Part shown: positions 1,905 through 61,789 of the stretch, in pieces
Numbering within the stretch: the stretch's first letter is position 1
Layout: each line of letters opens with the position of its first letter
Source: Antedon mediterranea
Taxonomy: Eukaryota; Animalia; Echinodermata
Assembly: GCF_964355755.1 (NCBI RefSeq)
Contig: NC_092678.1
Span: forward strand, 14,720,371 to 14,784,370
Length of the DNA stretch: 64,000 nt
Direction of reading: 5' to 3'
Notes under the pieces: model-generated
Seen by the model: only the letters and a program-made list of their open reading frames with translations
What the model was told of the DNA's origin: nothing
Database searches by the model: none
Program-made: the position numbers and the translations under genes

Positions 1905-1912
1905 ATGTCGAG
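1905..1912 (+). CDS. Probable start micro-exon, coding part (M-S-R split codon); exon 1869-1912
   Basis: cttcacag acceptor at 1868; aagATGTCGAG|gtgagt strong phase-2 donor that matches the next exon; in-frame upstream TGA. Confidence 0.65.
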
Positions 1913-4900
1913 GTGAGTTGTAAAGTTGAAGAACAACATTATACGAATATTAAATACATTTTCTAACAAGGCTATAAACAAAGGTATCATTATTTGGTTA
2001 ATGTATTGATGTAATTCATGTTATATGTTACAGATTACAAGCTGCTTTAAGGATTAATGACTTGCAACAAATTAAAGAAATATGTAAAAGAGAGCCAGAT
2101 ATTTTAAAATCCAAAGATAAGGTAAAACAAAAGATAGGCTTTCCATATTACTGATAAGAAATTATTTTCATTCAATTAGTTCCAAGAAGACCATACATTA
2201 AGTAAATTGTAAAACTGTAATCATTATGCCTATAATTCACATTCATTTAGACTAGACAAAAAGTAGTGAGCCCTCTAGCGGTGATTTGTGATTTCTGAGA
2301 TTCATCGAAGCGCGACAACATCACCCGGAAATGATGTGAATTAAAAATGTTAATAGGGTTAAACTCTTTTAACCAATTGAAAGCCTTAAATTATAGTTCC
2401 TTATGAATAATTCATGAAAATAATTAAAGCAAGGGTTAAAGAAGCATGTGACTTGGTTTTTGGAACAGGATAGCAGTTATGATCGTGTCAGGTAATCATT
2501 GAATTTGCTCTTCTTTTTGTTAGATTTTATACGGTTTTCATCAATAATAACATTGTACATTTTTACGAGACCATAAAAAAATTCCTCAATTTTTGAGTAA
2601 ACGAGTGACTAAATAAAAAGTTACTATGTAATGTAAATATTCGTTTGACAAAAAATGGGCATGTTGATATTTTCAGGTATTTTTTAAATGGCGATTGAAA
2701 TAGGTAAACAAATCACATGTATAACGGTGGTTTGTGCGAAGCTGGGCCTAGCCTTGATGGTCCAACGCGTACTGCGTGTTAATCAATGCGTATAGATACA
2801 CACGTAGTCGTTTAGGCCAATTTTTTACATGTTTATTTATTAATATTAGGCCCCATTCTCATTTATTTTAATTAATGTACTGAATGTACCACACTTTACA
2901 ACTCTATTTAAATTAGATTTTGTACTTGTATTAAATTCAAACGTTTTATGGGATTTAAAACATTAAGCTAGGCCTTGTAGTAGGCCTAGGACCACAGGCT
3001 AGGTTCTTCAGCCTAATTTATCATGCAGTATACCTCTAGCCCATCTTTCAAATACATATTTATATTAACATACTTTTTATATTTCTATATTTTTTATAGG
3101 ATCTGACTCCAGAAAACATTTGCATCACTTGAAAGCGGCTATTTATGGACAGCATGTTGACATTCAACAAAATTTGACCAGCTCTTATTAATTAAATGTC
3201 TTTTAAATTAAAGGTTTTCATTATAATGAAATGTACGGTGACAGAAATTTAAATGATTCTCATAATTGAGGTTTCTCATAGATTTAATATTGAAGGTAAA
3301 TAAATAAAGCTGTTTGTTATTCTTGCCTTTAGAAATAAACATGTTGTTAGTACTATATTATTATTAGGCCTAGGCAGCAGTACCTTACTTGATTTTATTT
3401 TTTTCAAATATTTAATTGATGAAATAAATGAGTTTGACTTCAATTAGTTGCCATTTTATTAGTTCCTGTGTGTTTTTATTTATATTCTTAAAATAATTGT
3501 ATACAACAACTTTAAAGTATTGCGAAGAAGTGATCAAATTATAGTAGGCCTATTTGTATGTTATTGTCGCTTAAAATTATGCAGTTAAAGTATTTGATTT
3601 TAGGGTGACAGAAACGGTTAGGCAAGAAAAGATATAAATTTGGGAATTTTGTTATGCGGTAAAAACAATTAAACATAATTTACCCCATATGCATGTAAAT
3701 GTAGAAAACATTGCTTATGTTAGCGCGACCGAAACTCGCTACTGGGAATAGAGCCTGCAAAAGCGACGCGTACACACCTACTCGGGCACCGGCGGAGCGC
3801 GATCGATAGTAAATATACCCGATTTCAAATGATCATAAAATTCTTTTAAAAAATATCAACATTTTGATTTTTTGAGGATTAAAAGTAAAGATATTGAAAT
3901 TTAACATAATATTTACAAATATGTATTTAAAAATTCGGAAACAATTTTAGCGTGATATTAAAACAAACTTTTTAGAGTTCCGCGATTTCCTACGCAGGAT
4001 TTGTTTGTTTTCATTGTTAATGAGCGAATGTTATCTAAACTGGAATCATTATAAATCTTTTAAATTTGTATTATAAGTAATTTCTTTAGTATTCTTAGTA
4101 ACATCGAATGTCTCTAATTAACTAACAGTTATTTATACTAACTATTGTTCAATAATAAGCGTGTATGAAGTCAAAATCTATATTAATAATGTTCTTAGTC
4201 AGTTCGTCTCGCTCGCGTGAAGTCTTCGGGTTTCTCAATACAATTCTCAGCGGTAAGATAGGCTCGCGCTAATGTTTAAATCAAAAGCACTCTCAAAACA
4301 CTTTTTTTCCAAAATTCGCAATATGACGTGAGTGTGAATTATTCAAATGTAATTAAATGATGATTTCCACTAATTAATTATTTGAATGAATGATTACTGT
4401 ATATTACGGGCTCGCTCGTTAAGCGTGGTTTCCACTAGCGACGCAACACAAGAACGTAACGCAACGCAAGTGAATTGACCAATCACAAGCGATTGCTTAT
4501 TCGCTTGTGATTGCTAACTGTCTATAACTTTGCTTGTCATTGGTTAAAACGCTTGCGTTGCGTTTGCGTCCTTGCGTTACGTTCTAGTGGGAACCAAGCT
4601 TTAGGCTGAAACCAACAATAAGAATATAACAAAACACGTTGTAGCTCCATCTTTCTCTCTCTAGAGGGCTCACTTCCGTGTGACAAATCCATCACACACC
4701 GCCACTTAAAGAAAGTTTGATATGATTAAACGTATAACTGTTTACTACAACATCTTAAATCTTTTCTTATATAGTAGTTATTTCAACATGTCATTGATAT
4801 GAATTTACTTCAACTGCTTCTTTAAATTCCACAAGTTCTAATGACTTTAAATCCGTGTATGCCATTAATGCATCACTCTATCACAACTAACATATTATAA

Positions 4901-43900: not shown

Positions 43901-46900
43901 ATATTGTACTGTCTGATAACCAATGGTGAATCACCAACATTACCAAAAGAGGTAATTTGACAAACATTTTAAATTGCAATAGTATATCATACTGGTAATA
44001 GTACACGTATGCTTAATGATAATTGTTATGTTTTGCTTCGTTTTTTACCTTCAAACGTAAGAAGATATTGTACTGTATGTTAATTATTATTAACATGATG
44101 CAACTTCTCTTGGTATAAATAATACATTTTAGCGACTTTCGATTAATTTGATTTAAAAATATTTATTTATTGAAAATATAACATTTTATATTTTTTTAGA
44201 AAGGAATCAATGCTCTACATTTACATCTAAGTGGTAGATATGTTAAACCTACGTTAGGAATAGTGACTAATCTCATTAAACTTGGTGTATCTCCAACATT
44301 ACAGGATAAGGTAAAGTACATAAGAGTGGGCATATTATATTCCCGTGATCTAACATTATGTAATTATCGGGTGGGACTCAAACACACCTCAGATCACGAG
44401 TGTGGTGTTGTTCATAATAATAATAATAATAATAAATGAAAACTTATATAGCGCCGGTATCCTCCACCCATGTGGCGCTCATGGCGCTTTGTGCATTAAC
44501 AACGTGCGAGAACATCAGCGAATAGCGACGTCTTTAGGTTGGTCTTGAAACTGTTTAGACTAGTTGAGCATTTAACTGTTGCTCGTAAGCTGTTCCATAC
44601 ACTTGCGGCCGCAACGTAAAAAGATCTCTGACCCCACTGATTTTTCGCTCTACGCTCTTGAAGAAGGTTTTGTGACAATGATCGAAGGCCTCTGCGGGAT
44701 GATTCGTAACGATCCACAAGGTCAGATAAATAAGCAGGAGCACTGTCATTTAGGATCTTGAATACAAACAACGCAAGTTTGTACTTAATACGTTGTTGAA
44801 CAGGCAACCAATGCAAATCCATCAGGACAGGAGTTATGTGAGCGTTTGATTTTGTATAAGTTACAATTCTAGCTGCCATATTTTGCAAGCGCTGCAAACG
44901 TTGTTTTTGAGATTTTGGTATGCCAAACAACAAGGCATTACCAATGTCAATTTTAGAAGTGAAAAATGAGTGTACAATCAATTCAGCTGTTTTCTTGTTA
45001 AGATTACCGCGAATACGACCAAGGTTCCTAATCGATATGCATGCTGCTTTGGATACAGTTGTTATTTGTGCTTCCATAGTGAGATTACTATCCAGCATGA
45101 TTCCCAGATTCCGGACCACCGATGAGGGAGCGATGTTAGAGTTTCCGATTCTGATATGTGTGATGTTGATTTTGGAGATGTTACATTTAGACCCGACGAT
45201 AATAAACTCTGTCTTTCCATCATTCAACTTTAGGTAATTTGTTGTCATCCAATTGCGAACATCTTCTATACAGGCTTCCATCTTACTGATTGCTGCAGCA
45301 ACATCCCTTTGCACTGGATTTACTGACACATAAATCTGTGTATCATCTGCATAGAAATGGAAATGTAGACTGTGTTTGCGAATAATGTCACCAAGGGGAA
45401 GCGTATAAATGGAAAACTGGCCAGGCCCAATTACTGACCCCTGTGGTACACCATATTCCAGGCAAGCTTCATCTGAGAATGCATCATTGATACAGACTAG
45501 CTGTTATATTATTATATGAGTAAAAAGTATGAGTGTTCCTGTATCTGAAGTGTTTTGTAAACACAATATGTCTTATAATATTCATATTGCATCAGCCACA
45601 AAACAACAACAATCAATCATGTTATCAGTTGTGTCCAACAATAAGAATAAGAATCCTTATATTTTATGTTTATGATATATTCACAGAATGGATACACACC
45701 GATAAATATTTATCTGGAGCGTGATGATGTTATATTAGAGATATTGTACTGTCTGATAACCAATGGTGAATCACCGACATTACGAAAAGAGGTAATTAGA
45801 CAAACATTTTAAATTGCAAAAGTATATCATTCTGGTAATAGTACACGTATGCTTAATGATAATTGTTATGTTTTGCTTCGTGTTTACCTTCAAACGTAAG
45901 AAGATATTGTACTGTATGTTAATTATTATTAACATGATGCAACTTCTCTTGGTATAAATAATACATTTTAGCGACTTTCGATTAATTTGATTTAAAAATA
46001 TTTATTTATTGAAAATATAACATTTTATATTTTTTTAGGAAGGAAGCGATGCTCTACATATACATCTAAGGGGTAGATATGTTAAACCTACGTTAGGAAT
46101 AGTGACTAATCTCATTAAAATGGGTGTATCTCCAACATTACAGAATAAGGTAAAGTACATAAGAGTGGGCATATATTCCCGTGATCTAACATTATGGAAT
46201 TATCGGATGACACTCAAACACACCTCAGATCACGAGTATGGTGTTGTTTATAACTCTATACCTGCATCAGAGTGGTTACAGCAAGCAAATACAGTTGGAA
46301 ACCCCTAACTTTCGTGGTACCGAGATTAAATCTCTAAAAAAGAAATGAAAATATATATTTTTTTAATTATCCACATCGTTTGTTTAATTTAATCTGTTAT
46401 TGTATAAAAAAAGTACGTATAATTTATAATGAACTTGAGAGAAAAGTGCCCTACGTATGTAAAGTAGTAAAGTCGAAACCTAAGCTAATGCTAACGGCCT
46501 TGGTGCCCATCTCCATTTCCTTAGCGTTTGGGCCAGGGTCCACTAAGTGTGTGTGTTGCAGGGGTATGCAACTCCTCCCACACAAACGAGTCTGATTTAC
46601 CTTCCCAGTAATTTTAACATACCGGTACCCATTTCTATCACCAGAGCATAAGCACCAGCAAAACCTTTTATTTTAATTTATTTGTGTATTATTTATCATT
46701 GCATAACTAAATTGATTTTCTGCAATAACCTGTATGTATAATTTTTTTATAACTCTATACCTGCATCAGAGTGGTTACAGCAAGCAAATACAGTTGGACA
46801 CCACTAACGTTCGTGGTACCGAAATTAAATCTCTAAATAAGAAATGAAAATATATATTTTTTTAATTACCTTCATCGTTTGTTTAACAAATATAAAACAA

Positions 46901-49900
46901 ACAAACGTTCTGCCATTCCTTTGTGTGTATTGTTTATCATTTTCTAACTATAATTATTTTCTGCAATACACTGTTTGTATAAACTTCATGATTATAATTT
47001 CTTTAAAGGACGGAAACACCCCGCTGCATGAATACATGCGTTCAAATGAACCTATCTTAGAAGTAGTAGACTATCTCACGAAGCAAGGTGCATCCTTTAC
47101 AGCACTAAATAAGGTAATAATTATATGGCTACAGATAAGTTATATGATTACACCTAACGTCGGCAAAATTATGTTTATTTATCTATGGTTTACCCCATTT
47201 AAAAATGTAATGTTTTGGTGTGATTTCACTTACAACAATGGCATAAAAATAATCAATAAGGATACGAATAATTATGACCGGAAGAACACGCCGCGAAATG
47301 TTCAAACGTTTCTATTACAGTACGAATACTACTTTCAATTACAATTATCTCATATTTTTGCATCTTCCATAACACTCAATATCTCCTTACCACAATGCTA
47401 ATTTTCCAATAGATTCCAATATATTCATGGTATGTGCTACTGTTATTGTTTACGTTTAATAATAAACTTCGTCATAATAATTTTTTTCTCTATAGGACGG
47501 AAACACCCCGCTGCATGAATACATGCGTTCAAATAAAGCTACCTTAGAAGTAGTAAACTATCTCACGAAGCAAGGTGCATCAATAGCAGCACTAAATAAG
47601 GTAATATAAGTCTAGAAATAATATATATGATTACACCTATAACGTACGTATGATCTGCGCCGCAAACGTATCTTATCCACTTTATTTTATATCATATTAC
47701 AATTGATTGAGTTATTTAGAATTACTTGCTGCAATAATTATTTAGTATTAATTAAACAAGATCCTACAGTTATTGTGAGTTTCGTATATTGACTATGTTT
47801 TATGTGGACATGTCATTATAAAAGAGCAGAATTTAGAATTATGACAGAAAGCAATGTTTACGTTAACCTGTATGCATAAACTACATGATTATGATTTCTT
47901 TTATGATTCTGTAAAATTACAATATAAGAGACAATTGATATAATTCGGTCTACGTTCACAGGATATGCACAAGAAAAACGTTTTATTTAAATTTATTTGT
48001 GTGTATTGTTTATCATTATCTAACTATAATTATTTGCTGCAATACACTGTTTGTATAAACTTCATGATTATAATTTCTTTAAAGGACGGAAACACCCCGC
48101 TGCATGAATACATGCGTTCAAATGAACCTATCTTAGAAGTAGTAGACTATCTCACAAAGCAAGGTGCATCCGTAACAGCACTAAATAAGGCAATTCCACA
48201 TGTTACTCGAAAATTCGGAGTATTTCCATGAATTGAATTATAATGCCTTAGCAAATAGAGTAGCAAATACTGTACCTACTTCGGTTTACTGGCACCAACT
48301 TGTCGCTTTTTTTCGGACTGCAACAAACATGTGTCATTATTATTGCCTGTCGTATTAATGTTGGTCCAGACGTTTTATAGATTTGCTTTAACCACCATGG
48401 AGGTTTATACCTCCATGCTTTAACGTTGAGCAGTATAATGACCTTATACATTCTGGGTAAAAGGCCAGCGATAACTTTTTGGTTATAGTTGAAAAACAAC
48501 ACTGTGTGTGGTCGATGACCTAGCTCCCGGCGGGATCATGGCCAACGGTTTTTTAAAGTAATCATTCAAAATCTAGACTGTGTAAGTAAAAGACACCTTT
48601 CATCGCAATTTATATATTAAATGCTTCAATAGGCCTAGTAAGATTAGTCTAATATAATGTCGAAGGAAGACGCTTTGTTGAAGATCCAAGAAATAGTTGA
48701 AGAAGTGGCCAACATTTTAACAGGTTCGTAGGCCTAAATAATAATTATATTTTAATCTGCCAGCAGTCTAGGCCTAGCCTAGGCCTCCTTCCTAGTTAGT
48801 AATACTGTAGGCCTGGAACTAGTAGGTTAAGGCTAGCCTACTATGCCTGTACTGACGGACAGGTGTATAGGTTTAGCTTAGAATTTTAGTTCAGACATTG
48901 ACAGAGGGGACAAATATTGTCGGACCTATTTCAGCTAGGTATAAGGAAGGCCTAATAAAAGATAATATAATTATAATGTAACAGTTATTTTGTAATGTAG
49001 CCATGAAATATCTACGAAGGATTATATTATATACACATATTCCAATGAGAAATATAATGACATTTAAAAACACTTCTTTATATTTAATTAATTGTACACA
49101 CTAAGTGATCCCCGAAGTAATCACATCGATATTGAAACTTAATGTTTTTAACTCTAAATTAAAAAAAAAACATACTAAAAAAACAAACAAAAAACATACG
49201 TACTGCATAACTAAAATTGTTATATTAAATTTCTTTTTAAAAAACGGTGTTATTTACATTATCTTAAATTATTTTTTAGGTAATTGAAGAAGTTCGAAAG
49301 ATACTTATTACTAGGCAAAGAGGAATGAAAAACAAAAGAAAGCTTTTTAAAAAAGTGCTTAGCAAATTTTTCCAAAGAAGCGAATAATATAGTTTATTTT
49401 GGTATTTTAAAGAGAAACACCAGTGCTCCATCTGGTAAGTACAGTGTATGTTTTTGTACTTTTATCTATTCATAAATAGTTTTATAATGGACCAATGGTA
49501 GTGAGTAAAATACGTGTACATATTGTGTACGTATTTTTAACAGCTTGGTTCGACTCAAGCTAGTGTCATGCACTCCTCCCTTTGACAACTAAAATTAAAT
49601 AAATGACTTATGAATATTAATTTTTGACAGATTAATGCTCTCCTGGCCAGCCCACCCTTTCCCCTTCCTTTTACATTGACTACCTACAAAACTGTAGGCT
49701 ACATTAAAAATTTGAGCTACAGTATATCAAGTTTATGTCCATACATTATTCCACTCATTTAAATAAATTTATATAATATAATGTTTTCAATTTGTTATTT
49801 TTGGTTAGGTTCAAAGATAACCCATATGTTGTCAAATCTGTCAAACATATTTGTTGGGAAAAACTCATCAAAAAAAGTCTGCCGACCTTGAAGGTATTTA

Positions 49901-52900
49901 GTGTTTTTTTAAATTTAAAATACAAGTAATATTATGTACAAAATATCTTAAAGTGTTTTTTTAAAATCAAATTTATCTTAGCTTAAAATTCGAGGTATAT
50001 ACTATGTTTACAATAATTTATTAAAATCAAACAATTAAACAAAATTTACATTTAATTGTATGATTGTTATTATAAACATTGATACGGAATAAAAACATCA
50101 ATCAGGATTGAGCACCGTTTTGCGTATTGTCTTCCTAAATAGTAATATTAAAAATAAATTTAGACCCTAATAATTTAACTAAAAATAATAGATACAGCCA
50201 GGCCTGTCTTTGGGATCGGTATAAACAGGGCAAAGTTTGTGATTAAAAAGTTCAAATGCATATTCCACCCACCCTTATGTCTTATAATGTAAAATTATTC
50301 TTACCACCGTTCTAATATTGCGTCATGTTTTTGTGTTTACCGCCCCAGATATAGGACTCTAAAACCACACCGTACCCAATTAGTTGATGATGTTACACAT
50401 ATTTTAAATACAGTAATAACTAAAACTATATTAATCTCTTTTCATGTTTAGGAACATGAATAAAGATCCAGAATCCTGGTCTTCACGCCGATCAGGTAAT
50501 ATGCCGGTATTGCTTTTGGACACCGAAATGGCCTACATTAAAGTTGAGCAAACAATTCTAACTACAAAGAAAGCAAAATTAGATGAGGCTCTAGTTACTC
50601 TCCTCTCCACTTTTTACCTTCTGGATTTCAATTATCCAAAATGAAAAGAAGTAGGCCTCACTATCCTTTAACAGTTAGTGATTTGTGATGAAGACACACC
50701 TGTACACTTGACAAAGGCTGTTGAATCATCATTAGTATACATTAATAAATTTAATTAAAGACACCTAATAGTTTAAAGCCCATGTGCGGAGAAGAATTTT
50801 ACGAAATTTGTATTTTACCATTTTAATGTTTTTAAGTTTTCTTTTGATGGCATTTTATTATTAATAAAAACAAGTTTGTTTTAAAGAAGTTGTATATATT
50901 ATTGTACCTAATGTCATGTAAATTGTAGTTCTTAATGAAAATAACAGTATTGTTAATATTATGTTTTATAACATTCTTGAATTTATTTGTTTAAGTAAAA
51001 TATTACTTAAAATGAGTATTCATTTATCGTTCTTAAAATAAATTTTTAATGATTTATATTTTATAGAATTCTTGTTTCAAGCAATTTTTTCCCAATATAA
51101 GTAAGAATTTACGAATTTTAATTTGATAGAATTCTTGTTTCAAGCAATACTTTTCTTAAAATAAGTAAACATTTACTGGTTTTTATTTGATAGACTTCTT
51201 GTTTACTTATTTAAAAAAAAGTTTTGCTTGAAACAAGAATTCTACAAATGAAAATCGGAATATTCTTACTTATTTTAAGAAATATATTGCTTGAAACAAG
51301 AAAACTAAAAATATAAATCGGAATATTCTTACTTATTTTAAGAAAAATATTGCTTAAAACAAGAATTCTAAAAAATACAAATCGGAATATTCTTACTTAT
51401 TTTAAGAAAAAAATTGCTTGAAACAAGAATTCTACAAATAAGAATCGGAATATTCTTACTTATTTTAAGAAATATATTGCTTGAAACAAGAATTCAAAAA
51501 ATACAAATCGGAATATTCTTACTTATTTTAAGAAAAATATTGCTTGAAACAAGAATTCAAAAAATACAAATCGGAATATTCTTACTTATTTTAAGAAAAA
51601 TATTGCTTGAAACAAGAATTCAAAAAAAATACAAATCGGAATATTCTTACTTATTTTAAGAAATATATTGCTTGAAACAAGAATATTAAAATTAAAAATC
51701 GGAATATTCTTACTTATTTTAAAAAAAATATTGCTTAAAACAAGAATTCTAAAAAATACAAATCGGAATATTCTTACTTATTTTAAGAAAAATATTGCTT
51801 GAAACAAGAATTCTACAAATAAAAATCGGAATATTCTTACTTATTTTAAGAAATATTTTGCTTGAAACAAGAATTCAAAAAATACAAATCGGAATATTCT
51901 TACTTATTTTAAGAAAAATATTGCTTGAAACAAGAATTCAAAAAATACAAATCGGAATATTCTTACTTATTTTAAGAAAAATATTGCTTGAAACAAGAAT
52001 TCAAAAAATACAAATCGGAATATTCTTACTTATTTTAAGAAAAATATTGCTTGAAACAAGAATTCAAAAAATAAAAATCGGAATATTCTTACTTATTTTA
52101 AGAAATATCTTGCTTGAAACAAGAATTCAAAAAAATACAAATCGGAATATTCTTACTTATTTTAAGAAATATATTGCTTGAAACAAGAATTCTATAAAAT
52201 ACAAATCGGAATATTCTTACTTATTTTAAGAAATATATTGCTTGAAACAAGAATTCAAAAAAATACAAATCGGAATATTCTTACTTATTTTAAGAAAAAT
52301 ATTGCTTGAAACAAGAATTCTATTTTAAAAAATCGATAAATTGTTATTTATTTTAAGGCAGATACTGCTTAAAACAAGAATGAAAAAAACAATTAAATTC
52401 TTGGTAAGAATATTGTTCTTAAAGTATTATTTCTTGGTACTACTATCTTCATCTCCTATATGCGGAACATTATTTGGATAATAGAACAAATCATACATCT
52501 ACACATAATCAAGCATCGTATACTCTATCTCTAACAATATTTCAATCTTTTATCAACTAAAGCTGAAGTATAGTCGTTATCTCGGAACCGTCCTATGGTT
52601 ACCACCAGGTAGGCTTGCTTCATCAAGGCTTCTATGAATGGATGTACTGGTTGGGAGCAGAAAATCTAGTAGACCATACCCAGTACCGTTTTGATTACGA
52701 TCAATCGGGAATTTACCTCACAACATTTAAACACACATATGGTTGATGTGCTAATACTAAATTGTATATATATATTTTTTTGTCGCTTCGCTCGCGTACC
52801 ATCTAGGTCGTGCCCACAGATGGTTCTCGAATACACAGCAATTTCAGCGTAAAAAAATGCTTTTTTTTAATGTACGTACTACAGGATGATAATAATTATT

Positions 52901-55900
52901 ATTGTTTACAGAAACAAATAAATAGACACGATGATATGTATTAAACTGAAATTAGCACGCTGGGAATTACTTCCGAAAGAGAAACTTGTCACAAAATGAG
53001 TCCAAATTTGTTATTTGGACTCATTTAAACAAACCAAATTTGTGTTTTGTGTGTAACTTTAGGGTTGAGGGATGGGAAAGAAGATATGGGTACAAAGAAG
53101 AACAATGTTTTAATATATTCTTTATCTACTCAGTAACGAAATATGTTTTTCATGTTTGTTAGGCCTATAAATAATATACCACTTGATACAGTAACACATT
53201 TGCGATTTAATACTTTGTTAAAACTGTCACTGTTATAGTCCATTGAAATAGCATACGGTAGTACATGTAACGATACACGTACCACTACAACGTTTATATT
53301 CTTTGTAATTATTAATTAATACAAACGTTGAGAAGCAACTGTCAGTAGTACAGTTTATTTGTATATTGTACGTTTTGTATAACAGTAGGGCCTACTCACA
53401 GGCCTATAAATAATATACCACTTGATACAGTAACACATTTGCGACTTAATACTTTGTTAAAACTGTCACTGTCATAGTCGATTGAAATAGCATACGGTAG
53501 TACATGTAACGATACACGTACCACTACAACGTTTATATTCTTTGTAATTATTAATTAATACAAACGTTGAGAAGCAACTGTCAGTGCTACAGATTATTTG
53601 TATATTGTACGTTCTATATAACAGTAGGGCCTACACTCACAGTAATACGTTTATTTGTACATGATTGTTTTATACATCTAACAGTACCCACAATCACAGT
53701 AAATTCAATGGCGACCACAAATGTTAATACGTATTTACAGGGCCTGTTTCTGCTGCAACTGCTCAAAATACGGTATAAAAATACGGTATAAAATACGGTA
53801 TTTTTTATACCGTATTTTTTAGTACCCCGTTTCTGCTAACAATACTTCTTGGGTGGTCGTGTTAAATTTCATCTTTTTTACCCAATTTGCCATTCATTTA
53901 TTTGATCGATAATTAAAAGTCGCAATAAAGGAAGTTTTACGTCTCACTTTCAACAGCCTAGCCCTAGTGATAGATATGTTGTGAGAGCACAGAAAACATC
54001 GTAATGGGGACAATTAATTCGTTCCCTCCCCGAGTTATTGTATTTTGCCATGTTGTACTGCTTTCGCAGGCTCTTCAGCTTTGAGTTTACTTGCTTTGGA
54101 GACAAGTCTATTCCATACTCCTGCTTTATTTTTTTAGAAATGTCTTTATAAATGTGGTTGTCCCTTTTATTACCTTTTAGTTGGCCAGACATTTTAGCTT
54201 CCCCACACAAAATTATTTAGTAAAACTGTGACGTCTTCGCTCCACATTTTCGCCGAATATATATATACACGTGTGTAAAACAGCTGACAGCGACAGAAAA
54301 TAAAAACACGAATGTTGACCTTTTGTCATGTAAAAAAAAAAATACGGTATTTGGCCTACGTTCACATGATATGCACAAGAATAATGTTTTATTTCAATTT
54401 CTTTGTGTAATGTTTATCATTAGGCCTATCTAACTATAATTATTTGCTGCAATACACTGTTTGAATAAGCTTCATGATTATTATTTCTATAAAGGATGGT
54501 AACACCCTGCTGCATGAATACATGCGTGCAAATGAACCTACATTAGAAGTAGTAGACTATCTCACGAAGCAAGGTGCATCCGTAACAGCACTAAATAAGG
54601 TAATAATGGGCTAAAGATCATTGCAAAATAAGGGAATGCGCAGATAATATTGATATAATTCGGTCTACGTTCACATCATATTCACAAGCAAAACCTTTTA
54701 TTTCAACTTCTTTGTGTATTATTTATCATAAGATAAGATAAGATAAGATAACTTTTATTGATCCTCAAAAAAGAAATTCATTGCTCGTCATAATAACAAG
54801 AAAACACAATAAAAACAAATATAGCATAAAACCATTCATATAAAAACATCAAAAAATACAAGATAAAATTATCTTCTTAACTTTCTGTTGTACTGGATGA
54901 TACCTGAGGGAATAAATGATTTGGCATATCGATTTGTTTTCACACTGAGGAGCCTCAATATACCACTTGGATTAAGTTGGTCTATGATCACTTTGTGGAG
55001 AGGATGAGAGGCATCTGACTCAATGCGTTCAAAATCTTTCTGGAGGTGTTCATTACCTAATTATAATTATTTGCTGCAATACACTGTATGTATAAACTTC
55101 GTTATAATATTTTTTTCTCTATAGGACGGAAACACCCCGCTGCATGAATACATGCGTTCAAATGAACCTAACTTAGAAGTAGTAGATTATCTCACGAAGC
55201 AAGGTGCATCCGTAACAGCACTAAATAAGGTAATATAGGTCTAGAAATAATTTATATGACTTCAACTATCGTACGTATGATCTGCACCGCAACATATCAT
55301 CTTTTCTACTTTATTTTATATCATATTAAAATTGATTGAGCTATTTAGAATTACTTGCTGCAATAATTATTTAGTAGTAATTAAACAAGTTCCTACAATT
55401 ATTGTGAGATTGGTTTATTGAGCAATGAAATTATTAATTTTTTAAATAGTTTTATGTGGACACGTCATTATAAATTTGTTGAATTTAGAATAATGACAGA
55501 AAGCCTTGTTCACATTAACCTAAACTACACAATTATGATTTCTTTTTTCTTTTCTTGGATTTTTCTTTACCTTTCATTAACATTTCAAAATAAAGAAATG
55601 CACAGACAATTGACATAATTCAGTCTTCGTCCACAACATATGCACCAGCAAAACCTTTATTTCAATCTGTTTGTGTATTATTTATCATAATCTAACTATA
55701 ACTATTTGCTACAATAACCTGTATGTATAAATTCCATGATCATAATTTCTTTAAAGGACTGAAACACCACACAGCATGAATAATTAGTCATTTGAATAAT
55801 AGTTGTTTTGTTTCTTCAAAAACATATAATCCAAATTCTAGCAAATTGACTACGTCGCCCATGCGCCATGCATGTACACAATACTAGTACAAACATTCCT

Positions 55901-58900
55901 TTCATTAAATGTTACTTTAAACTTAATTTCAAATACAGTTAAAAACAAAATCATTTTGTTAACATTAATTATAAATACTACCGTATAACTTTATTGCGTA
56001 AATTAGTTCCCTTTGAAGATACGTAGTTTATTATTGCCTGAGTTATTACCACATTTGAGGGCACAGTTATTTTGCATTGAAGGATGCACTCAATTTTAAG
56101 TTTATCTGGAGATATTTAGCTTTTAAAACCTATTCACTGATTGTTTACTATGTTTAAATTAACTAGTATATAGTGTACGGTAATGATAGTTAATTATTAT
56201 CGGGCTTACGCGGAGCTACACATTGAAAGGATGGGAGATATCCTGTCACTGGCGAAAATTATGTTCCTTTATCTGGTTTTGACCCCATTGAAAAATGTAA
56301 TGTTTTGGTGTGATGTAACTTACAACAATAGCATCCAAATAATCAAAAAGGACACGAATGAATTATGAAGGGACGAACAGGTCGCGGAATATTCAAACGT
56401 TTCTATTCTAGTACGAATACTACTTTAAATTACAACTATCTCATATTATTGCATCTTGCATTACGCTCAACATCTCCTTACCACAATACTAATTTTCGTA
56501 TAGGTTCCAATAATATTCATGGTTTGTGGTACTGATATTTTTTACGTTTAATAATCCTTTTATAATACGGCCACATAAACATACACACTCCTGTGGTGAA
56601 TTTCCGTATCTCCCTTTATGTCATTTAAATCGGAATAGTCATGAAGAAAGTAATGTATTGTGTATATATGGTTGTAAATATACATGATTTGCAATATTGT
56701 AATAAATACCACTGGATACGGAATTGTTTGTTAGTTAGTGTAAATACTAACTAGAATGTTTTACATATGTATATTTGTTGTTTTTAATTTATTTAAGTTT
56801 ACCATAATTTTGAGTTTGCGATTTCCTTTTGATGAATACATTTAAATCAATATTTGAATTTCAGAATGGGGTTTACAATTACTATGAAATAGTGTACCTT
56901 GTATTGCGGTACAGTATTTTCTTAGAAGCTCTATGCTTAATTTAGAATTTACTTATGATGTGTCTACAAAAATGTTCATTTGATTTGCTTGTTGTTTGCA
57001 CTCACTTACTACAATTGGGGTTTTATATATGTCTGATTCCATAGACATATTGTTTCTTTGATTTCTAAATCGGTTTATAAACAAATATTTCTACTATTAG
57101 CAATACTTAAAACACTTTTATGTTTATAGGAAGGAAAAACAGCAGTATCTGTTTTAGAAGAAAATACGCAGATAGAACAAAAAGAAAAATGCATGATTTT
57201 AGAGTATTTTGACAGTAAGCTATTATATTAAAGTTTTTAACATGAAATTAGCAACAAATATTTGAATTCTGAAACAAATGTTATTCATAATGTTTACATA
57301 AAACCATGAATGTGAATGTATGTATGTTATGCGTATTTTTTATATTTTAATATTAGAATTGTTGGTTCCTCCTGAAATATTTGCCAGGGGTAAACAGGCT
57401 ATCAAAATATATAAAAATGAACTTAAAGATGGTAAAATTGCAGTTGTGAATTCGAGATGTATGTTTCTTGGGAAGGAAGGTGCTGGTAAGACTAGCTGTG
57501 TAAAGGCCATGCTTAAAGAAAGGTAACTAAATGCAAATTATTTACGTATACATATACATTTTAGTATTGAAATAATTATCAGTGTATTTTTAATTATATG
57601 TAAGGATGTGGACGACAACACAAAAGGAAAAACACGCCTTTTCTCACTTTTACCACGGTCCGGTGGTGTATTTGGTTTTAATTTGTTTTTAGCATAACAA
57701 TAGAGATCAGTATGGTCCTGAAAACCACAAAATAAATACAATGAGAAACAAAAGTAAATAATATTCTAAAATACAATCCAATTCTTAGTAACGACCTCAA
57801 CTTAACAGGCGACTCTAATAAAAATGATTCTCTCTGACGACTGCGACTATTACATCAAACGGCACGTCTACCTAAACAGCCTCTGTATACTTTGTTAGAG
57901 TATACAAATACCTAATTAATTACCTACACAATTGCAACATAAGTGCCTGAATATTACTATTATATTACTAGAATAAATGCATGTTGGAATTTACTCACAC
58001 TATTTGAATACTAAACTTAGTCTATTCATTGAATCAAGGAGTTATAATCTTAGGTTTGTGTAAAATATATAAACAATAACAAATCCATGGGCGCAGCCAT
58101 TTTGTATGATAAATAGAGGGCGCACTACATGACGATCTACCACGAACATGGTAGCCTCGTGTATACAAATTAATCAAGTGTGAACTGTAGGATGAACTAT
58201 TTTATACAAACTGTTAACTAGAAACTATCTTCTATAAACTAAACATTACTAAATCTATCTAAACATATTTTGTTAATACAAAGAAGGTTTATCACAAAAG
58301 TATATATTATAACATTATATGGCATAAAATCCTAGTTCAAAGATTGTAACACAATACTATTCAATAGGCTTCCTAACTGCACATTCCATGAGTCAAGGTT
58401 AACCCAAAACAAATGTCTAGGCCTATGAATGCAATCATCTTAAAATACAACATTAATGTTTCTTAAACATAACAGAATCTTATAAATGTATAACAAAGTA
58501 ATATATGTATAAAGTAAAGTAATTACCTTTTAATCAGATCTTTAATTAAGTAAGAGACAAAACTATCTGCTTCCTTTACCGGTTCATGAATACAAAAGAA
58601 AGCAAATCATTTGAAAAAGACTGTTACAATTATAGGGGACAGCAACACCTATATGGGGCAGTATTTAATTATCACATGATTAGATTAATCCCCACATATA
58701 TATTTGATGTAAATACTAATACTAATTTAACCATTTTACCTCACCATCATATTGTTAACATAGATTCAATCCCGACGAACCATCCACAGACGGTATCGTT
58801 ACAAGGACAGTGTTTCAATCAAATAGTAAGAGCGAATGGAAGAGGATTAAAGATGAACACGACGGTAAGATTTGTGTAACTACCTGTAGAGTAGAAAATC

Positions 58901-60838
58901 GAGTTTCTGCCGTCATGTGATGCCAAGCGAAACGTGGAATTAATATCTGTGATTGTAGTACTGACAAGTAGAGTTTTTTTATAGTCTTACTCTAGAGTTG
59001 TGGAATAGGCACGATGTTATATGTAATGTTTAAAATAATGTTATTACACATTGATACCGATTAAATGAAATTCAGTGTTTTCCATAAACTCCAACCAGCA
59101 TAATGATTTGTATACATATTGTTTTAACCAATTGCTATTTTTGTACAGATTCCGAGCTAACCAGGAAAATGCGTGAACATGTAATAAAACAAAGGGTTGA
59201 TAAGGAGTTAGGTATGTAATACAGCAAAACAAATTATATAACGCTTTTTAACAATTGAAATAAATCATTTATCCTTCATATTTTTTTAACGGACCTATTA
59301 TACAAATAATGAATGTCTATTAGTGTAATTGTACAAATAATGGCATGAGGTGAATGATGTTATATATCAACGAGGCAACGCCGAGTTGATATTTAACCTT
59401 TCATCATTCACCAAATGCCATTATTTGTACCATTACACGAATATAACATTCATTACTTGTTTTATATAACATCTAAATAGATTCCAGTCAGTTGAATCAA
59501 ATAAAAGGTAGCCCTCTAGGAAAGGCCCACATTTCATTCACATTGATTAAAACAGTAACATTTGGTTTTTAATAATATTATAGTAAATGTTATATTTATA
59601 TGGATTTTATAAACACACGTACTTTAGTGTTATGTATGTCCACAAACGACCAAACAATCCTAATACTAACAGGCCTAGGCCTAGGCCAGACCATAGTACT
59701 AGCTTGACGCTGATTACATTATAATGTACTATGTAAATATGAAATGCAATGTTGACAGTACATGGCCAGACAATACTGCCTCTCATATGTTGTTGTTGTT
59801 TGGTATTCTATGTATAAGTTAAAAACGTAAACGTAGGCGTCTGTGTCGTTTAAAATAGTACTTGGTCAAAATGGTCGATATTCGGCAATCTATAAATACT
59901 TTTATTTTATTTTATTTTCTAATAGAGGACAACCAAAGCTACCCAATTGGAGGTGATTCTGTGAATATTCCAAATGAAATAACTAGCATATGGGACTACG
60001 CTGGTCAATTGGACTACTACATAACGCATAGGGTATGCCTATCAATATGTTGTTTATTGGCAGAATATGATCTGATAATTGCATAGATATATTAATGTAG
60101 TAGTGATAGTGTTAGTGGTGATGATGGTGGTGGTGGTTGTAGTGGACGTGACAGTGGCAGTGAAATTGGTAGTAGCAGTGGTAGTGGAATTGGTATGTAG
60201 GGCCTATATTGCATTTTAATAATTTTAAAACAATTATATTCTAATAATATTTTTCTCGATTTACAGTATATTGTTTTCCCCCCACTTGTTAAACAAGCGA
60301 AGATGGCTTCATCTCAATAGAGTTGCCCAGACATCTATCTAATATTACATTAACATTACAATTATGAGTAGTGTTTTATTATAATTATCATTGCTTGCAC
60401 CATGTTCTTGACACGCACGTGTATATTAATTTGTAATATGTCTTTAAAACATTGTTTAATAATAGTATTATATACTACGAAGAACTTGCAGTCCACATTC
60501 TTATACGCAATGGTGTTAAACTGTAATTATTTTCCTCCTTATATTCTTAAAAAAAGGAATAAAAAGGAATATAATTATGTAGCGTTCTGATTTAACATTA
60601 GTATTGACATACTCGCTTCAATGTGCAGTATGCCTACTACGATGTAAGCTTAGGCCTACTAAATGTCACTAATTATAATAAAAGACTCTCTTCCAATAGA
60701 AAATATCTATCCATCATAATAACCACCTTATATCTGTTTTTGGTTTAGTTTTTCCTCACAAATACAGCATCGTACTGTGTTGAATTTAATGCTTTGGATA
60801 ACTTGGATGAACCAGCTAATCCACGAGATCCAGCAGTT
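1905..60838 (+). CDS. Multi-exon ankyrin-repeat Roc(-COR) GTPase gene (Roco family), 3'-incomplete in this window
   Basis: 23 AG/GT-bounded exons (one GC donor) with compatible phases splice to about 771 aa without stops: MSRLQAALR... N-cap, 15 single-ankyrin exons, pre-Roc [13 protein letters not shown]-loop [14 protein letters not shown]2 STDGI, G3 [19 protein letters not shown]. Confidence 0.88.
2034..2121 (+). CDS. ANK N-cap exon ([29 protein letters not shown])
   Basis: ttacag acceptor, AAG|gtaaaa donor, phase 2 to 0; ends like an ankyrin repeat before GxTPLH. Confidence 0.75.
4402..4696 (-). repeat. 3' LTR (about 113 bp net, plus MITE insertion)
   Basis: Matches 17560-17588 plus 19286-19388; begins TGTGATGG on the minus strand. 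Confidence 0.85.
4422..4600. mobile_element. PIF/Harbinger-type MITE in the 3' LTR
   Basis: TIR AGCGTGGTTTCCACTAG / CTAGTGGGAACCAAGCT, TTA TSD, nearly fully palindromic; the empty site is visible in the other LTR. Confidence 0.85.
4959..6012 (-). pseudogene. pol: Gypsy pol: RT core and RNase H (frameshifted)
   Basis: [33 protein letters not shown] (YxDD variant), DASDVG, EKE, TDHNPL, ADALSR. Confidence 0.92.
7280..9035. mobile_element. Non-autonomous Academ-like fold-back DNA transposon
   Basis: TAG...CTA termini, GCT TSD, TIRs over 400 bp, internal inverted copies of a ~370-bp unit; the host LINE frame is restored on removal. Confidence 0.85.
9679..10541 (+). pseudogene. LINE ORF1 (coiled coil plus RRM-type), frameshifted
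   Basis: [44 protein letters not shown] motifs. Confidence 0.82.
10822..13792 (+). pseudogene. LINE ORF2 endonuclease plus reverse transcriptase, several frameshifts and stops
   Basis: HMNARSL, SETW, YRPP, GDFN, TDHLP, NYRPIS, DLSKAFD, GVPQGS, FADDT. Confidence 0.92.
15079..16630 (-). pseudogene. pol: Gypsy pol: integrase followed by the RT N-terminus
   Basis: [18 protein letters not shown] zinc finger, [22 protein letters not shown], then [20 protein letters not shown]. Confidence 0.92.
16640..17223 (-). pseudogene. gag: Gypsy gag N-terminal part, internally deleted
   Basis: Coiled coil, then [37 protein letters not shown], typical of Gmr1-like gag. Confidence 0.8.
17540..17557 (-). promoter_or_regulatory. 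tRNA-Pro primer binding site
   Basis: Minus strand TGGGGGCTCGTCCGGGA directly inside the 5' LTR. Confidence 0.88.
17589..19276. mobile_element. Non-autonomous AcademH-like element
   Basis: 9-bp TSD GGCTGAAAC (17580-17588 / 19277-19285), TAG...CTA ends, a terminal hairpin at each end (GACTTG-CCC-CAAGTC; GTCTGG-AAC-CCAGAC). Confidence 0.7.
17615..18345 (+). mobile_element. Helentron-associated non-autonomous element (HINE/DINE-1-like)
   Basis: subTIRs AGTCGCGTG / CACGCGACT, (GGTC/GTCG)n microsatellites, 3' hairpin GCCAT-CTAT-ATGGC, inserted in a T run. Confidence 0.72.
19931..20035 (+). CDS. ANK exon A1 ([35 protein letters not shown])
   Basis: 105 nt, ctag|...|gtaatg, phase 0-0. Confidence 0.82.
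21088..21192 (+). CDS. ANK exon A2 ([35 protein letters not shown])
   Basis: 105 nt, atag|...|gtaaca, GxTPLH motif; flanks paralogous to those of A1. Confidence 0.88.
22048..22142 (-). pseudogene. Isolated Gypsy RT fragment
   Basis: [30 protein letters not shown], homologous to 5895-5990. Confidence 0.7.
23426..23461 (+). pseudogene. Dead ANK exon (5' stub DGKTPL, then frameshift/stop)
   Basis: ttatag|GAT GGA AAA ACC CCA CTG C CAT ...; no donor at +105. Confidence 0.65.
23566..23760 (+). mobile_element. tRNA-derived SINE with a Deu/Nin-like core
   Basis: A-box TGGCCGAGCGG, core TTCTCAGATAAGGAATATAAACCGTAGATCC and GGGGTTACCCCGGTGT, internal (TAG)n. Confidence 0.65.
23763..24290 (+). repeat. 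120-bp tandem repeat (about 3 copies) plus short GAGATC repeats behind a CACTACCCAG end (possible CACTA terminus)
   Basis: Units at 23791, 23911 and 24031 are nearly identical. Confidence 0.7.
24766..27400 (-). mobile_element. CR1-group LINE, decayed, internally deleted
   Basis: (TGAAA)n tail; [34 protein letters not shown]; 5' boundary approximate. Confidence 0.85.
27780..28450 (+). repeat. Degenerate ~300-bp tandem repeat
   Basis: ACCA(C/T)TGGTCAAGAAA..ATATCTCA..GTCTCAAATTACTCG recurs at about 27790, 28093 and 28380. Confidence 0.5.
29104..29750 (+). mobile_element. EnSpm/CACTA-like element, left end only
   Basis: Begins CACACAGCAAAATTTGAAATTC, nearly identical to 61010 onward; about 2 copies of the 102-bp subterminal repeat. 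Confidence 0.8.
30000..30315. mobile_element. Kolobok-family MITE, decayed
   Basis: AGATGTATTGTCCCC / GGGGCCAAAACATCT ends shared with the 37510-40366 element. Confidence 0.6.
31626..31736 (+). CDS. ANK exon B1 ([37 protein letters not shown])
   Basis: 111 nt, tttag|...|gtaaag, phase 0-0. Confidence 0.85.
32292..32396 (+). CDS. ANK exon C1 ([35 protein letters not shown])
   Basis: 105 nt, atag|...|gtaata. Confidence 0.88.
32907..33011 (+). CDS. ANK exon C2 ([35 protein letters not shown])
   Basis: 105 nt, AAG acceptor, gtaata donor. Confidence 0.8.
33106..34752 (+). mobile_element. Non-autonomous Helitron in a C-unit intron
   Basis: 5' TCTATATATAAA, 3' CTAG, inserted between A and T with no TSD; the empty site TTTATA|TCATATTACAATTG is seen at about 47690. 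Confidence 0.8.
34165..34482 (-). mobile_element. L2/CR1 LINE 3' fragment nested in the Helitron
   Basis: RSLRS..YGNRSFS...LWNALP..FKSLLKA with a (TTA)n tail. Confidence 0.75.
35127..35176 (+). pseudogene. Dead C-class ANK exon (5' half and acceptor deleted; final AAG changed to TAG)
   Basis: GTAAACTATCTCACGAAGCAAGGTGCATCAATATTAGCACTGAATTAG with C-unit flanks. Confidence 0.8.
36801..36813 (+). pseudogene. C-unit whose exon body is deleted
   Basis: C-type upstream intron, ttatag|ATCGGAAA, then immediately the C-type downstream intron (GATTATACCTATAAACGTACGTATGATCTGCA). Confidence 0.6.
37394..37498 (+). CDS. ANK exon C3 ([35 protein letters not shown])
   Basis: 105 nt, atag|...|gtaact. Confidence 0.86.
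37510..40366. mobile_element. Non-autonomous Kolobok-like DNA transposon
   Basis: TTAA TSD (37506-37509 / 40367-40370), TIR AGTTGTATTGTCCCC / GGGGACAATACATCT, further imperfect TIR (GTTATTCACTTT / AAAGTGAATAAC). Confidence 0.82.
40390..40760 (+). mobile_element. Decayed LINE fragment (Rex1/Babar-like)
   Basis: [21 protein letters not shown] and [12 protein letters not shown]-like remnants. Confidence 0.5.
41931..42041 (+). CDS. ANK exon B2 ([37 protein letters not shown])
   Basis: 111 nt, tttag|...|gtaaag. Confidence 0.85.
42860..42970 (+). CDS. ANK exon B3 ([37 protein letters not shown])
   Basis: 111 nt, tttag|...|gtaaag. Confidence 0.85.
44200..44310 (+). CDS. ANK exon B4 ([37 protein letters not shown])
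   Basis: 111 nt, tttag|...|gtaaag. Confidence 0.85.
44416..45500 (-). mobile_element. 5'-truncated L2/CR1-type LINE with an open RT C-terminal frame
   Basis: [35 protein letters not shown], (TTA)n tail; absent from sibling B units. Confidence 0.9.
46039..46149 (+). CDS. ANK exon B5 ([37 protein letters not shown])
   Basis: 111 nt, tttag|...|gtaaag. Confidence 0.85.
46459..46636 (-). mobile_element. SINE 3' portion
   Basis: Minus strand AAATGGGTACCGG...CTGGGAAGGTAA...GGAGATGGGCACC with a CTTTA-type tail; GC-richer insert in the B-unit flank. Confidence 0.55.
47009..47113 (+). CDS. ANK exon C4 ([35 protein letters not shown])
   Basis: 105 nt, AAG acceptor, gtaata donor. Confidence 0.82.
47496..47600 (+). 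CDS. ANK exon C5 ([35 protein letters not shown])
   Basis: 105 nt, ctatag|...|gtaata. Confidence 0.88.
48085..48189 (+). CDS. ANK exon C6 ([35 protein letters not shown]); donor is GC at a TE junction
   Basis: 105 nt and intact, but followed by gcaattcc instead of gtaata. Confidence 0.6.
48657..50757 (+). pseudogene. Spliced EnSpm accessory gene remnant (SAMD3-like C-terminus)
   Basis: Possible first exon [22 protein letters not shown]|gt; last exon at about 50452 [21 protein letters not shown] with stops. Confidence 0.55.
51225..52320 (+). repeat. 63-64-bp tandem array, about 17 copies
   Basis: TTGCTTGAAACAAGAATTCAAAAAATACAAATCGGAATATTCTTACTTATTTTAAGAAAAATA, head to tail. Confidence 0.95.
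52800..53640 (-). mobile_element. Inverted relative of the Helitron 3' region, including a ~240-bp tandem duplication (53161 / 53400)
   Basis: GGTCGTGCCCACAGATGGTTCTCGAATAC is the reverse complement of 34718-34746, and the similarity continues; two near-identical 240-bp blocks. Confidence 0.7.
53740..54352 (-). mobile_element. Harbinger-like remnant with a Myb/SANT (trihelix) ORF
   Basis: [13 protein letters not shown]...[17 protein letters not shown]...[12 protein letters not shown]; AAAATACGGTAT subterminal repeats at both ends. Confidence 0.7.
54495..54599 (+). CDS. ANK exon C7 ([35 protein letters not shown])
   Basis: 105 nt, AAG acceptor, gtaata donor. Confidence 0.8.
54730..55049 (-). 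mobile_element. Rex1/Babar-like LINE 3' fragment
   Basis: SDASHPLH...PSG..R...[11 protein letters not shown], (TTATC)n tail, TCAT on both flanks. Confidence 0.72.
55125..55229 (+). CDS. ANK exon C8 ([35 protein letters not shown])
   Basis: 105 nt, ctatag|...|gtaata. Confidence 0.88.
55757..55783 (+). pseudogene. Dead C-class ANK exon (stops, 3' truncated)
   Basis: ttaaag|GAC TGA AAC ACC ACA CAG CAT GAA TAA. Confidence 0.8.
57130..57214 (+). CDS. ANK C-cap/linker exon ([28 protein letters not shown])
   Basis: ttatag|...A|gtaagc, phase 0 to 1; GKTA start. Confidence 0.85.
57357..57522 (+). CDS. Roc exon 1 with the P-loop
   Basis: [25 protein letters not shown]...[19 protein letters not shown], phase 1 to 2. 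Confidence 0.93.
58764..58864 (+). CDS. Roc exon 2 (switch I)
   Basis: [33 protein letters not shown], catag|...|gtaaga, phase 2 to 1. Confidence 0.88.
59149..59211 (+). CDS. Roc insert exon ([20 protein letters not shown])
   Basis: tgtacag|...|gtatgt, 63 nt, phase 1-1. Confidence 0.72.
59298..59469. repeat. Palindromic MITE-like element
   Basis: GTACAAATAATGGCAT..GGTGAATGATG mirrored by CATCATTCACC..ATGCCATTATTTGTAC around a GAGGCAACGCCGAG centre. Confidence 0.65.
59926..60032 (+). CDS. Roc exon with the G3 motif
   Basis: ...[19 protein letters not shown]|gtatgc, phase 1 to 0. Confidence 0.93.
60749..60838 (+). CDS. Roc exon ([30 protein letters not shown])
   Basis: tttag|...|gtaagt; completes the Roco YY.TH.FFLT..A.Y motif. 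Confidence 0.88.
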
Positions 60839-61789
60839 GTAAGTTCAACATTATTTTAAACTTCAATTATTAATATTATTAATTGTTTCTCTTAGTAAAC
60901 AAAATATTTTATTACATAAAAAATATATACTAATATAGTATATTACATTAATTTTTTTTTAATTGTACCTACATTTTGTTTAATTGTACCTACATTTTAT
61001 TTTAGGGTCCACACAGCAAAATTTGAAATTCTAAGCAAGAAAAAAAAATCTTGTTTTAAGAAAAAATTCTTAAAATAAGTATTTTTTTTCTTGTCAAGAT
61101 TTAAAATTACTTAAAACAAGAAATAATTTTCTAGAAAAGACACATTTTCTTAAATTAAGTTTTGCAATATTCTTGAAAATGCTTATTACAAGAAATATTT
61201 TACTTAAAATAAGAAGTCAATATCATTCTCTTCTTATTAAGAATAGTTTTGCTTAAAACAAGATTTGAAAATACTTAATTTGAAAAGTATTTTACTTAAA
61301 ATAAGAAATCTATATTATATTTATCCCTATCAAGAATAATTTTTCTTAAATCAAGATTGATGAATTATAAAAATTACTTAAAACAATCAATATTTTTCTA
61401 GGTAAGACAAAGTTTCTTAAATTAGGTTTCGCAATAGTCTTGAAAATACTTGTTTTGAGAAATATTTTACTTAAAATAAGAAGTCAATTTCACACTACCC
61501 TTATCAAGATTATTTTTACTTGAATCAAGATTCGCAATATTCTTGAAAATGCTTATTACAAGAAATATTTTACTTAAAATAAGAAGTCAAAATCATTCTC
61601 TTCTTATTAAGAATAGTTTTGCTTAAAACAAGATTAGAAAATACTTAATTTGAAAAGTATTTTACTTAAAATAAGAAATCAATATTATATTTATCCCTAT
61701 CAAGAATAATTTTTCTTAAATCAAGATTGATGAATTCTAAAAATTACTTAAAACAATAAATATTTTTCTAGGTAAGACAAAGTTTCTTA

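Follow-up and report, generated by a model that had tools for sequence, protein, structure and literature searches.

Can an animal gene in which each ankyrin repeat is carried by its own symmetric exon, ahead of a Roc GTPase domain, belong to a class of sensors that vary by gain and loss of exons? This question is raised by a locus of the feather star Antedon mediterranea, which was analysed here in a window, i.e. the whole stretch of 64,000 nt, of AT-rich animal DNA with 31% GC. The idea of an exon-shuffled ROCO receptor has already been published for brown algae, and an initial inspection of the letters of the window (hereafter the sequence-only reading) had suggested an ankyrin-based animal analogue. 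According to the present analysis, the window probably contains an ankyrin-Roc gene whose 20 one-repeat exons were generated by tandem duplication of exons together with introns, and which is likely a transposon-disrupted member of an expanded family of predicted NLR-like sensors.

Layout of the exon array and its duplication units

Splice-site scans, tblastn and DNA profiles were used for the delineation of the array, and 20 stop-free, AG-bounded exons of 105 or 111 nt were obtained on the plus strand, all of phase 0-0 and each with a product of 35 or 37 aa that corresponds to one repeat. Exon size and symmetric phase agree with the sequence-only reading, but its count of 15 intact exons does not, as five exons of a fourth class (D) had been overlooked and exon C6 lacks a GT donor; the other 19 of the 20 exons are canonical. 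The order of the array is A1 A2 D1 B1 C1 C2 C3 D2 B2 D3 B3 D4 B4 D5 B5 C4 C5 C6 C7 C8. The succession of A, B and C exons had been given correctly, but the class D exons (105 nt, starting at 31232, 41586, 42507, 43847 and 45687), one of which precedes B every time, were missing from it. Since all repeat exons are of phase 0-0, any subset of them keeps the reading frame, as had been claimed.

All features described in the following are located on the plus strand. A first coding exon piece of 8 nt with the ATG and a GT donor (1905..1912) is followed by an N-cap exon of 29 aa (2034..2121), which resembles the N-termini of the paralogue models P0008, P0010 and P0011. The array starts with exons A1 (19931..20035) and A2 (21088..21192) and continues with D1 (31232..31336), B1 (111 nt, 31626..31736), C1 (32292..32396), C2 (32907..33011) and C3 (37394..37498), the most divergent C exon (83-88%). 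Four D-B units come next: unit 2 (41586..42041; D2 41586-41690, B2 41931-42041), unit 3 (42507..42970; D3 42507-42611, B3 42860-42970), unit 4 (43847..44310; D4 43847-43951, B4 44200-44310) and unit 5 (45687..46149; D5 45687-45791, B5 46039-46149). The remaining exons are C4 (47009..47113), C5 (47496..47600), C6 (48085..48189), which has GC instead of the GT donor and adjoins a transposon fragment, C7 (54495..54599), within which the public model P0001 begins, and C8 (55125..55229), and a C-cap exon of phase 0-1 (57130..57214) completes this part of the gene. No exon copies were found on the minus strand in five profile searches of the window.

Within the classes, exon identity amounts to 78% for A, 93-97% for B, 83-97% for C and 90-97% for D, and no pair of exons is identical. 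A DNA profile built from the exons also matches three dead stubs at E-values of 1e-8 to 3e-5, so the array signal is far beyond chance. These stubs are the 5′ part of a C-type exon (23427..23445), the 3′ half of a C exon (35127..35179) and a further C stub (55759..55790). The assignment of exactly one ankyrin repeat to every exon holds for part of the array: Pfam Ank was matched above the curated cut-off by A2 and by the three C exons tested and below the cut-off only by A1, but not by the B and D exons (two of each tested). Classes B and D are probably ankyrin-like, judging from their DNA homology to the A and C exons. In the structural model of the paralogue P0160, class B forms a helix-loop-helix within the solenoid, and class D, which lies at the start of the model without a cap, forms two helices whose pLDDT is under 50. 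A candidate exon remnant at 3100-3170, with an acceptor-like site and weakly ankyrin-like letters interrupted by stops, was matched by no profile and was rejected. Decayed reading frames of LTR-retrotransposon and LINE type were read by eye in the long introns (2122-19930, 21193-31231 and 44496-45503).

The introns were duplicated along with the exons, in D-B units of approximately 0.9 kb and C units of approximately 0.5-0.6 kb, and the duplication unit in the middle of the array is the D-B pair including its introns. These co-duplicated introns, the three dead stubs and two intron-only remnants near 36800 and 46740 bear out the earlier suggestion of recent duplication with dead copies. Over the older split, between unit 1 and units 2-5, the exons are more conserved than the introns, with 30 variable sites out of 216 in exons vs 126 out of 476 in introns (P=2e-4) and no exon indels. 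Among themselves, units 2-5 differ at the intron rate (22/216 variable exon sites vs 44/502 variable intron sites, P=0.57). The pN/pS ratio was 0.44 for the C exons, 0.80 for D and 2.9 for B, the last being calculated from few changes. Positive selection on class B was considered and rejected, because the ratio is derived from only 15 changes and the face sites are not above the intron rate. A backward joint from 43660 to 41198 was observed in runs X2 and X6; it points to additional D-B units, in a form absent from the window, in another haplotype or a paralogue.

Roc exons and the transposon insertions

Downstream of the C-cap, five Roc exons were located: exon 1 with the P-loop GKEGAGKTS (G1; 57357..57522), exon 2 with the switch I motif STDGI (58764..58864), exon 3 (59149..59211), exon 4 with WDYAGQ (G3; 59926..60032) and exon 5 (60749..60838). 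Splicing of the ATG piece at 1905, the N-cap, the 20 repeats, the C-cap and the five Roc exons, 28 exons altogether, results in 946 codons without a stop. The last 265 residues of this product match residues 1-265 of P0001, which starts only inside C7, exactly, and the window therefore represents the Antedon mediterranea locus or an identical allele. Pfam Roc was matched by P0001 with 41.6 bits (cut-off 27; E 1.7e-10), and the five Roc exons are stop-free and 76-98% identical to P0160. The caps (2034-2121 and 57130-57214) and the downstream Roc exons (57357-60838) of the sequence-only reading were recovered, but the Roc domain is incomplete and is likely broken at 61012. G1, switch I and G3 are present, and G4 (ATHxD in the paralogues; residue 747 of P0160) is absent; neither G4 nor COR nor an effector was found in the window, and tblastn of P0160 matched nothing past residue 698.

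An acceptor is located 167 nt past Roc exon 5. It consists of a polypyrimidine tract with AG, is followed by GGT CCA, the Gly-Pro codons with which the next Roc exon opens (61006..61011), and then by a repeat terminus that is also present at 29106; a polypyrimidine-AG directly followed by GGNCCN occurs only once on the plus strand of the window. At the break point, after the residues RDP(S/A)V, the paralogues read GPLGMTN (P0160) or similar and lead on to G4, COR and the effector, and the window has a stop after GPHSKI, the same point where P0001 ends. The gene copy in the window is likely disrupted inside Roc by a transposon, a call that is based on six matching bases and their position, with the remaining exon lying beyond the window, and it likely makes no complete GTPase. 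The transposon is situated within the sixth Roc exon, contains a 102-bp satellite and runs off the window (61012..64000); the insertion may be restricted to a single haplotype. P0041 begins at MTNL, the residues that follow the break, and the identity of P0048 with the COR-B region of P0160 is 93%. Together with P0026, these fragment models, with accession numbers near that of P0001, may represent the 3′ remainder of the window gene.

The gene has been struck three times by the same high-copy element, of which pieces are found at 29106-29751, 48191-52390 and 61012-64000. The internal fragment (48191..52390, plus strand) contains an intron-bearing gene and a 63-bp satellite, and its first 52 nt (48191-48242) are identical to the last 52 nt of the window (52/52). 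The satellite arms of the element are composed of 102-bp and 63-bp units, and its terminus and satellite arms resemble those of CMC/EnSpm-type DNA transposons, which we take to be the candidate class. The fragment starting at 48191 leaves GC where the GT donor of C6 stood. A true GC-AG intron at C6 was rejected as a likely interpretation, the C being the first base of the transposon fragment. GT-AG joints of the element gene (48723/49280 and 49893/50452) in the RNA-like run X6 suggest that the element family is transcribed. Contigs of runs X1, X2 and X5 bypass a separate repeat insertion of 1.1 kb (57595-58696) in the intron that follows Roc exon 1, which indicates either a polymorphic insertion or a paralogue.

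Paralogues, splicing and binding-face positions

A search with the first Roc exon yielded hits for 13 of 88 candidates, all of them from Antedon mediterranea and distributed over contigs of four different lengths. The full-length paralogues are composed of Ank-Roc-COR, a low-complexity linker and a DED-like end, and many other models of the family are fragments. Pfam Ank, Roc and COR-A were found together in P0008, P0009, P0011, P0012 and P0160, COR-A being above the Pfam cut-off in these five and in P0007, and DED was matched in four of the five at E-values of 2e-7 to 2.5e-5, below the curated cut-off. With regard to the domain search suggested earlier, Ank and Roc were matched, and COR and DED-like modules were present in the paralogues but not found downstream in the window.

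The nearest full-length paralogue is P0160 (XP_071961256), which is 91% identical over 267 aa and keeps the D, B and C classes, the cap and Roc, in addition to G4, COR and a DED-like end; its model is placed on a contig equal in length to that of P0001. For its array an ankyrin solenoid was predicted (pLDDT 88.5), and the structural matches listed are DARPins and ankyrin-repeat proteins. In comparison with the 20 repeats of the window, P0160 has the array D B C x7, which includes one duplicated block of three repeats, with the limitation that the paralogue models are automatic predictions in which repeat counts may be incomplete, P0160 itself beginning with transposon-like sequence. Both repeat number and repeat order differ from those of this protein model, in accordance with the earlier proposal of a solenoid varied by exon duplication and loss; repeat number turns over between close gene copies, the paralogue side of this comparison being taken from the P0160 protein model, and tandem exon duplication probably enlarges the sensor in this family. 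Clades with good support were obtained for D, B, C and the P0010 type in a tree of 57 repeats, which is based on 36 columns and leaves many forks open. Repeats of the window and of P0160 interleave in it, and the repeats were therefore amplified separately in different gene lineages.

Comparison of P0012 with cluster representatives resulted in 103 proteins at E-values up to 1e-30. Among the 28 of these that were looked up, most belong to Antedon or Anneissia, one to Amphiura and one to Branchiostoma. In 16 scanned relatives the C-terminal ends vary (DED-like, Death, HEPN_DZIP3, ZU5, TIR), as do the N-terminal fronts (ankyrin, KIX/TAZ, Macro, fn3), and one DED-NACHT-LRR protein has the DED-like module in common with the family. 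The protein search with exon B5 matched no representative (2 candidates), a search that is insensitive since P0160 carries B as a cluster member, and the only locus from a metagenome scan was weak and unrelated.

For the analysis of transcripts, runs X2, X6, X10 and X11 were compared with a single exon each of classes D, B and C. No RNA run was among the matching runs listed, and X6 and X10 are called RNA-like solely because GT-AG or exon-exon joints are present in them and not in X2. X6 contains the joint of D1 with B1 as a 289-nt GT-AG skip (2 contigs) as well as C-C joints, and X10, which has an organism code other than that of X6, contains D-B, C-C and C-cap joints; none of these joints was seen for X2 or X11 among the matches listed. 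The letters of the X6 C-C joint match none of the eight C exons of the window, and they therefore derive from a different allele or from a paralogue. The exon classes do undergo splicing, and the joints listed respect their genomic order. Exon-skipping joints (D-C, D-D, B-B, C-B) were absent from the joints listed (15/222 and 15/18) and from the loose ends listed (24/213), in contigs that lose rare forms, and B-D and B-C joints were absent from the joints listed as well. Contigs of X10 run from the end of the B exon into the next intron (31707-32060), and most other intron stretches are uncovered; this coverage possibly represents a retained intron or an alternative 3′ end that would lead to an ankyrin-only product.

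Amino-acid variation biased towards the binding face was found by permutation with a strict DARPin set in P0010 (p 0.008), P0011 (p 0.044) and P0008 (p 0.040), without adjustment of these p values for the 7 groups and 3 sets examined. A first face set, which gave smaller p values, had been picked after viewing the variability, and the analysis was redone with the strict DARPin positions. The repeats of P0010 and P0011 differ sharply at the face positions on a near-constant framework. No face excess was detected in the C repeats of the window (p about 0.58) or of P0160 (p 0.58-0.92 for the two together), and same-class copies of the window, which are 83-97% alike, are nearly equal at the face positions. 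Among units 2-5, 4-6 of about 30-34 D/B face sites vary, which is not above introns (P 0.12-0.34). Over the older split the density of variable D/B face sites is 0.27-0.32 vs 0.265 in introns, and the D/B framework sites are conserved (P 5e-4 to 9e-5 vs introns). The proposed animal ankyrin analogue of brown-algal LRR-ROCO genes can consequently be retained at the level of the family, but not for the window copy, which is likely disrupted, has no face excess in its C repeats and has D-B units 2-5 that diverge at the intron rate.

Known ROCO systems and rival explanations

The animal ROCO proteins DAPK1, LRRK1/2 and MFHAS1 have a Roc-COR core, and in DAPK1 it is preceded by ankyrin repeats and followed by a death-fold domain. 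Unlike these proteins, the Antedon paralogues scanned are without a kinase domain, and they form a lineage-specific expansion with variable repeat number and not a single conserved gene. The available parts of PMC3341825 and PMC11378527 describe brown-algal LRR-ROCO genes (Ectocarpus, Saccharina) with one LRR per symmetric exon ahead of Roc-COR, dead intronic exon copies in Ectocarpus (PMC3341825) and splice variants of the one-LRR exons (PMC11378527). As far as these parts go, the Antedon genes are alike in the N-terminal solenoid, the single repeat per symmetric exon, the dead intronic exons, the multigene family with pseudogenes in which recent duplicates differ in repeat number, and the concave-face variation, which in Antedon is found in paralogues. 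By the same comparison they differ in the repeat unit (ankyrin, 105/111 nt, phase 0 vs LRR, 72 nt, phase 2), in their animal origin, in the DED-like end of the paralogues, in the lack of inverted exon copies among those found, in the four fixed repeat classes with D-B pairing and in the likely disruption of the window copy. By analogy, the Antedon array may be regarded as an ankyrin version of the brown-algal LRR-ROCOs that is of interest at the family level, and the family as one that would work like them and is not a member of that group.

From the excerpts of PMC11378527, ANK-ROCO architectures have already been noted in oomycetes and Gonium, and about forty ROCO domain combinations are given for animals; ROCO domains in TIR proteins of Aplysia are mentioned in the excerpt of PMC9334734. 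In the part of PMC8195603 at hand, bacterial AP-GTPase-COR proteins are described, the LRRs of which evolve fast and the C-terminal domains of which vary, together with death-fold protein expansions in sessile marine invertebrates. Like the NLR/STAND and AP-GTPase conflict systems treated there, the Antedon family combines a repeat sensor, an NTPase switch and a variable effector; unlike in NLR/STAND systems, the switch is a Roc GTPase and not NACHT/NB-ARC, and the sensor is an N-terminal ankyrin array. Among the papers listed in searches of the openly accessible literature, no description of crinoid or echinoderm ankyrin-ROCO exon arrays, including P0160, was found.

An NLR-like or immune role of the family is predicted from its architecture and from analogy. 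In intact members, a ligand inside the cell would dock onto the concave side of the ankyrin solenoid, the dimer state of the Roc-COR GTPase would change, and an adaptor or caspase would be recruited by the death-fold module at the C-terminus. In the germ line, whole repeats would be added or removed with the frame kept, through unequal crossing-over of homologous introns, and point changes at face positions would shift specificity. In the window copy, splicing through 61006 would reach a stop ahead of G4, COR and the effector, and the product would at most be an ankyrin solenoid with half a GTPase. This copy would be a casualty of birth-and-death turnover, and possibly an exon donor.

That the locus works in most animals is unlikely. 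The insertion at 61012 would then have to be rare, restricted to one haplotype or spliced around, or the truncated product would have to serve intact paralogues as a decoy or partner with ankyrin repeats only. No stop interrupts the 28 exons up to 60838, including the five Roc exons with their high identity to P0160, the bypass of 57595-58696 by contigs of three of four runs means that insertions can be polymorphic (unless the contigs stem from a paralogue), and the element, multicopy and with a gene spliced in an RNA-like run, may be young. However, the C6 donor was removed by a second hit of this element, D-B units 2-5 drift at the intron rate, and P0041 and P0048 resemble a split 3′ remainder, their adjacency being judged from accession numbers only. 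The neutral-like character of the recent D-B burst and the many fragmentary family models would also be expected if repeats were gained neutrally, by slippage of a symmetric exon prone to duplication, in a scaffold gene that is decaying or has no immune role, and if the family had no function in recognition, and the intron-like density of D/B face sites is explicable by relaxed constraint alone. This explanation is very unlikely to hold against the conservation of framework sites over the older split, the retention of Roc-COR and a death-fold-like end in several full-length paralogues, and the sharp face-position differences of P0010 and P0011 on their near-constant framework.

It is distinctly unlikely that transcripts choose exon subsets by alternative splicing or somatic recombination, as in a Dscam-like or brown-alga-like cassette. 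Every exon has the required phase 0-0, dead intronic copies have the brown-algal counterpart cited above, where splice variants of one-LRR exons are also described, and the RNA-like C-C joints carry letters not present in the window allele; yet none of the joints listed (D-B, C-C, C-cap) departs from the class order of the genome, neither the genome nor P0160 has D without B or B without D, and inverted copies like those of brown-algal ROCOs were not found. As class copies are so alike and near-equal at face positions, skipping would alter length more than specificity. An assembly artefact with false duplication is extremely improbable. Near-identical tandem units are hard to assemble and no contig among those listed spans the array, but none of the exons has an identical copy, the units are set apart by distinct insertions, pieces of run X2 match parts of the array without a difference (e.g. 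31676-31916 and 47195-47437), the classes recur in a separate paralogue, and the joint from 43660 to 41198 implies extra D-B units elsewhere. The reading as a tandemly duplicated, likely disrupted member of a larger family is the one followed here.

If this reading is true for the Antedon family, convergent recruitment would have made Roc-COR the switch of variable sensors inside animal cells, in addition to the NACHT-type NLRs. The features behind this case for convergence are the brown-algal-like gene layout, the turnover of repeat number, the face-biased variation and the swappable death-fold or HEPN ends. A more speculative extension, which is possible but rather doubtful, is that feather stars, and probably other sessile marine invertebrates, possess an undescribed NLR-like Roc-COR repertoire, in which clustered paralogues gain, lose and swap ankyrin modules of one exon each, with broken copies as exon reservoirs; per-animal, and possibly per-transcript, solenoids coupled to death-fold or HEPN effectors would then amount to a DARPin library of natural origin, shuffled in the germ line. 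The window copy, being likely broken, is a poor experimental subject, and P0160, P0010 and P0011 are better objects.

Two observations were made at the ends of related proteins. In P0021 and P0024 of Anneissia japonica, one or two HEPN_DZIP3 domains replace the DED-like module, and such an end would be a putative RNase effector on the Roc-COR switch. The Roc-COR relatives P0047, P0049 and P0095 have TAZ-KIX, Macro or CARD-fn3 fronts, which, from their domain content, look like integrated decoy or sensor domains.
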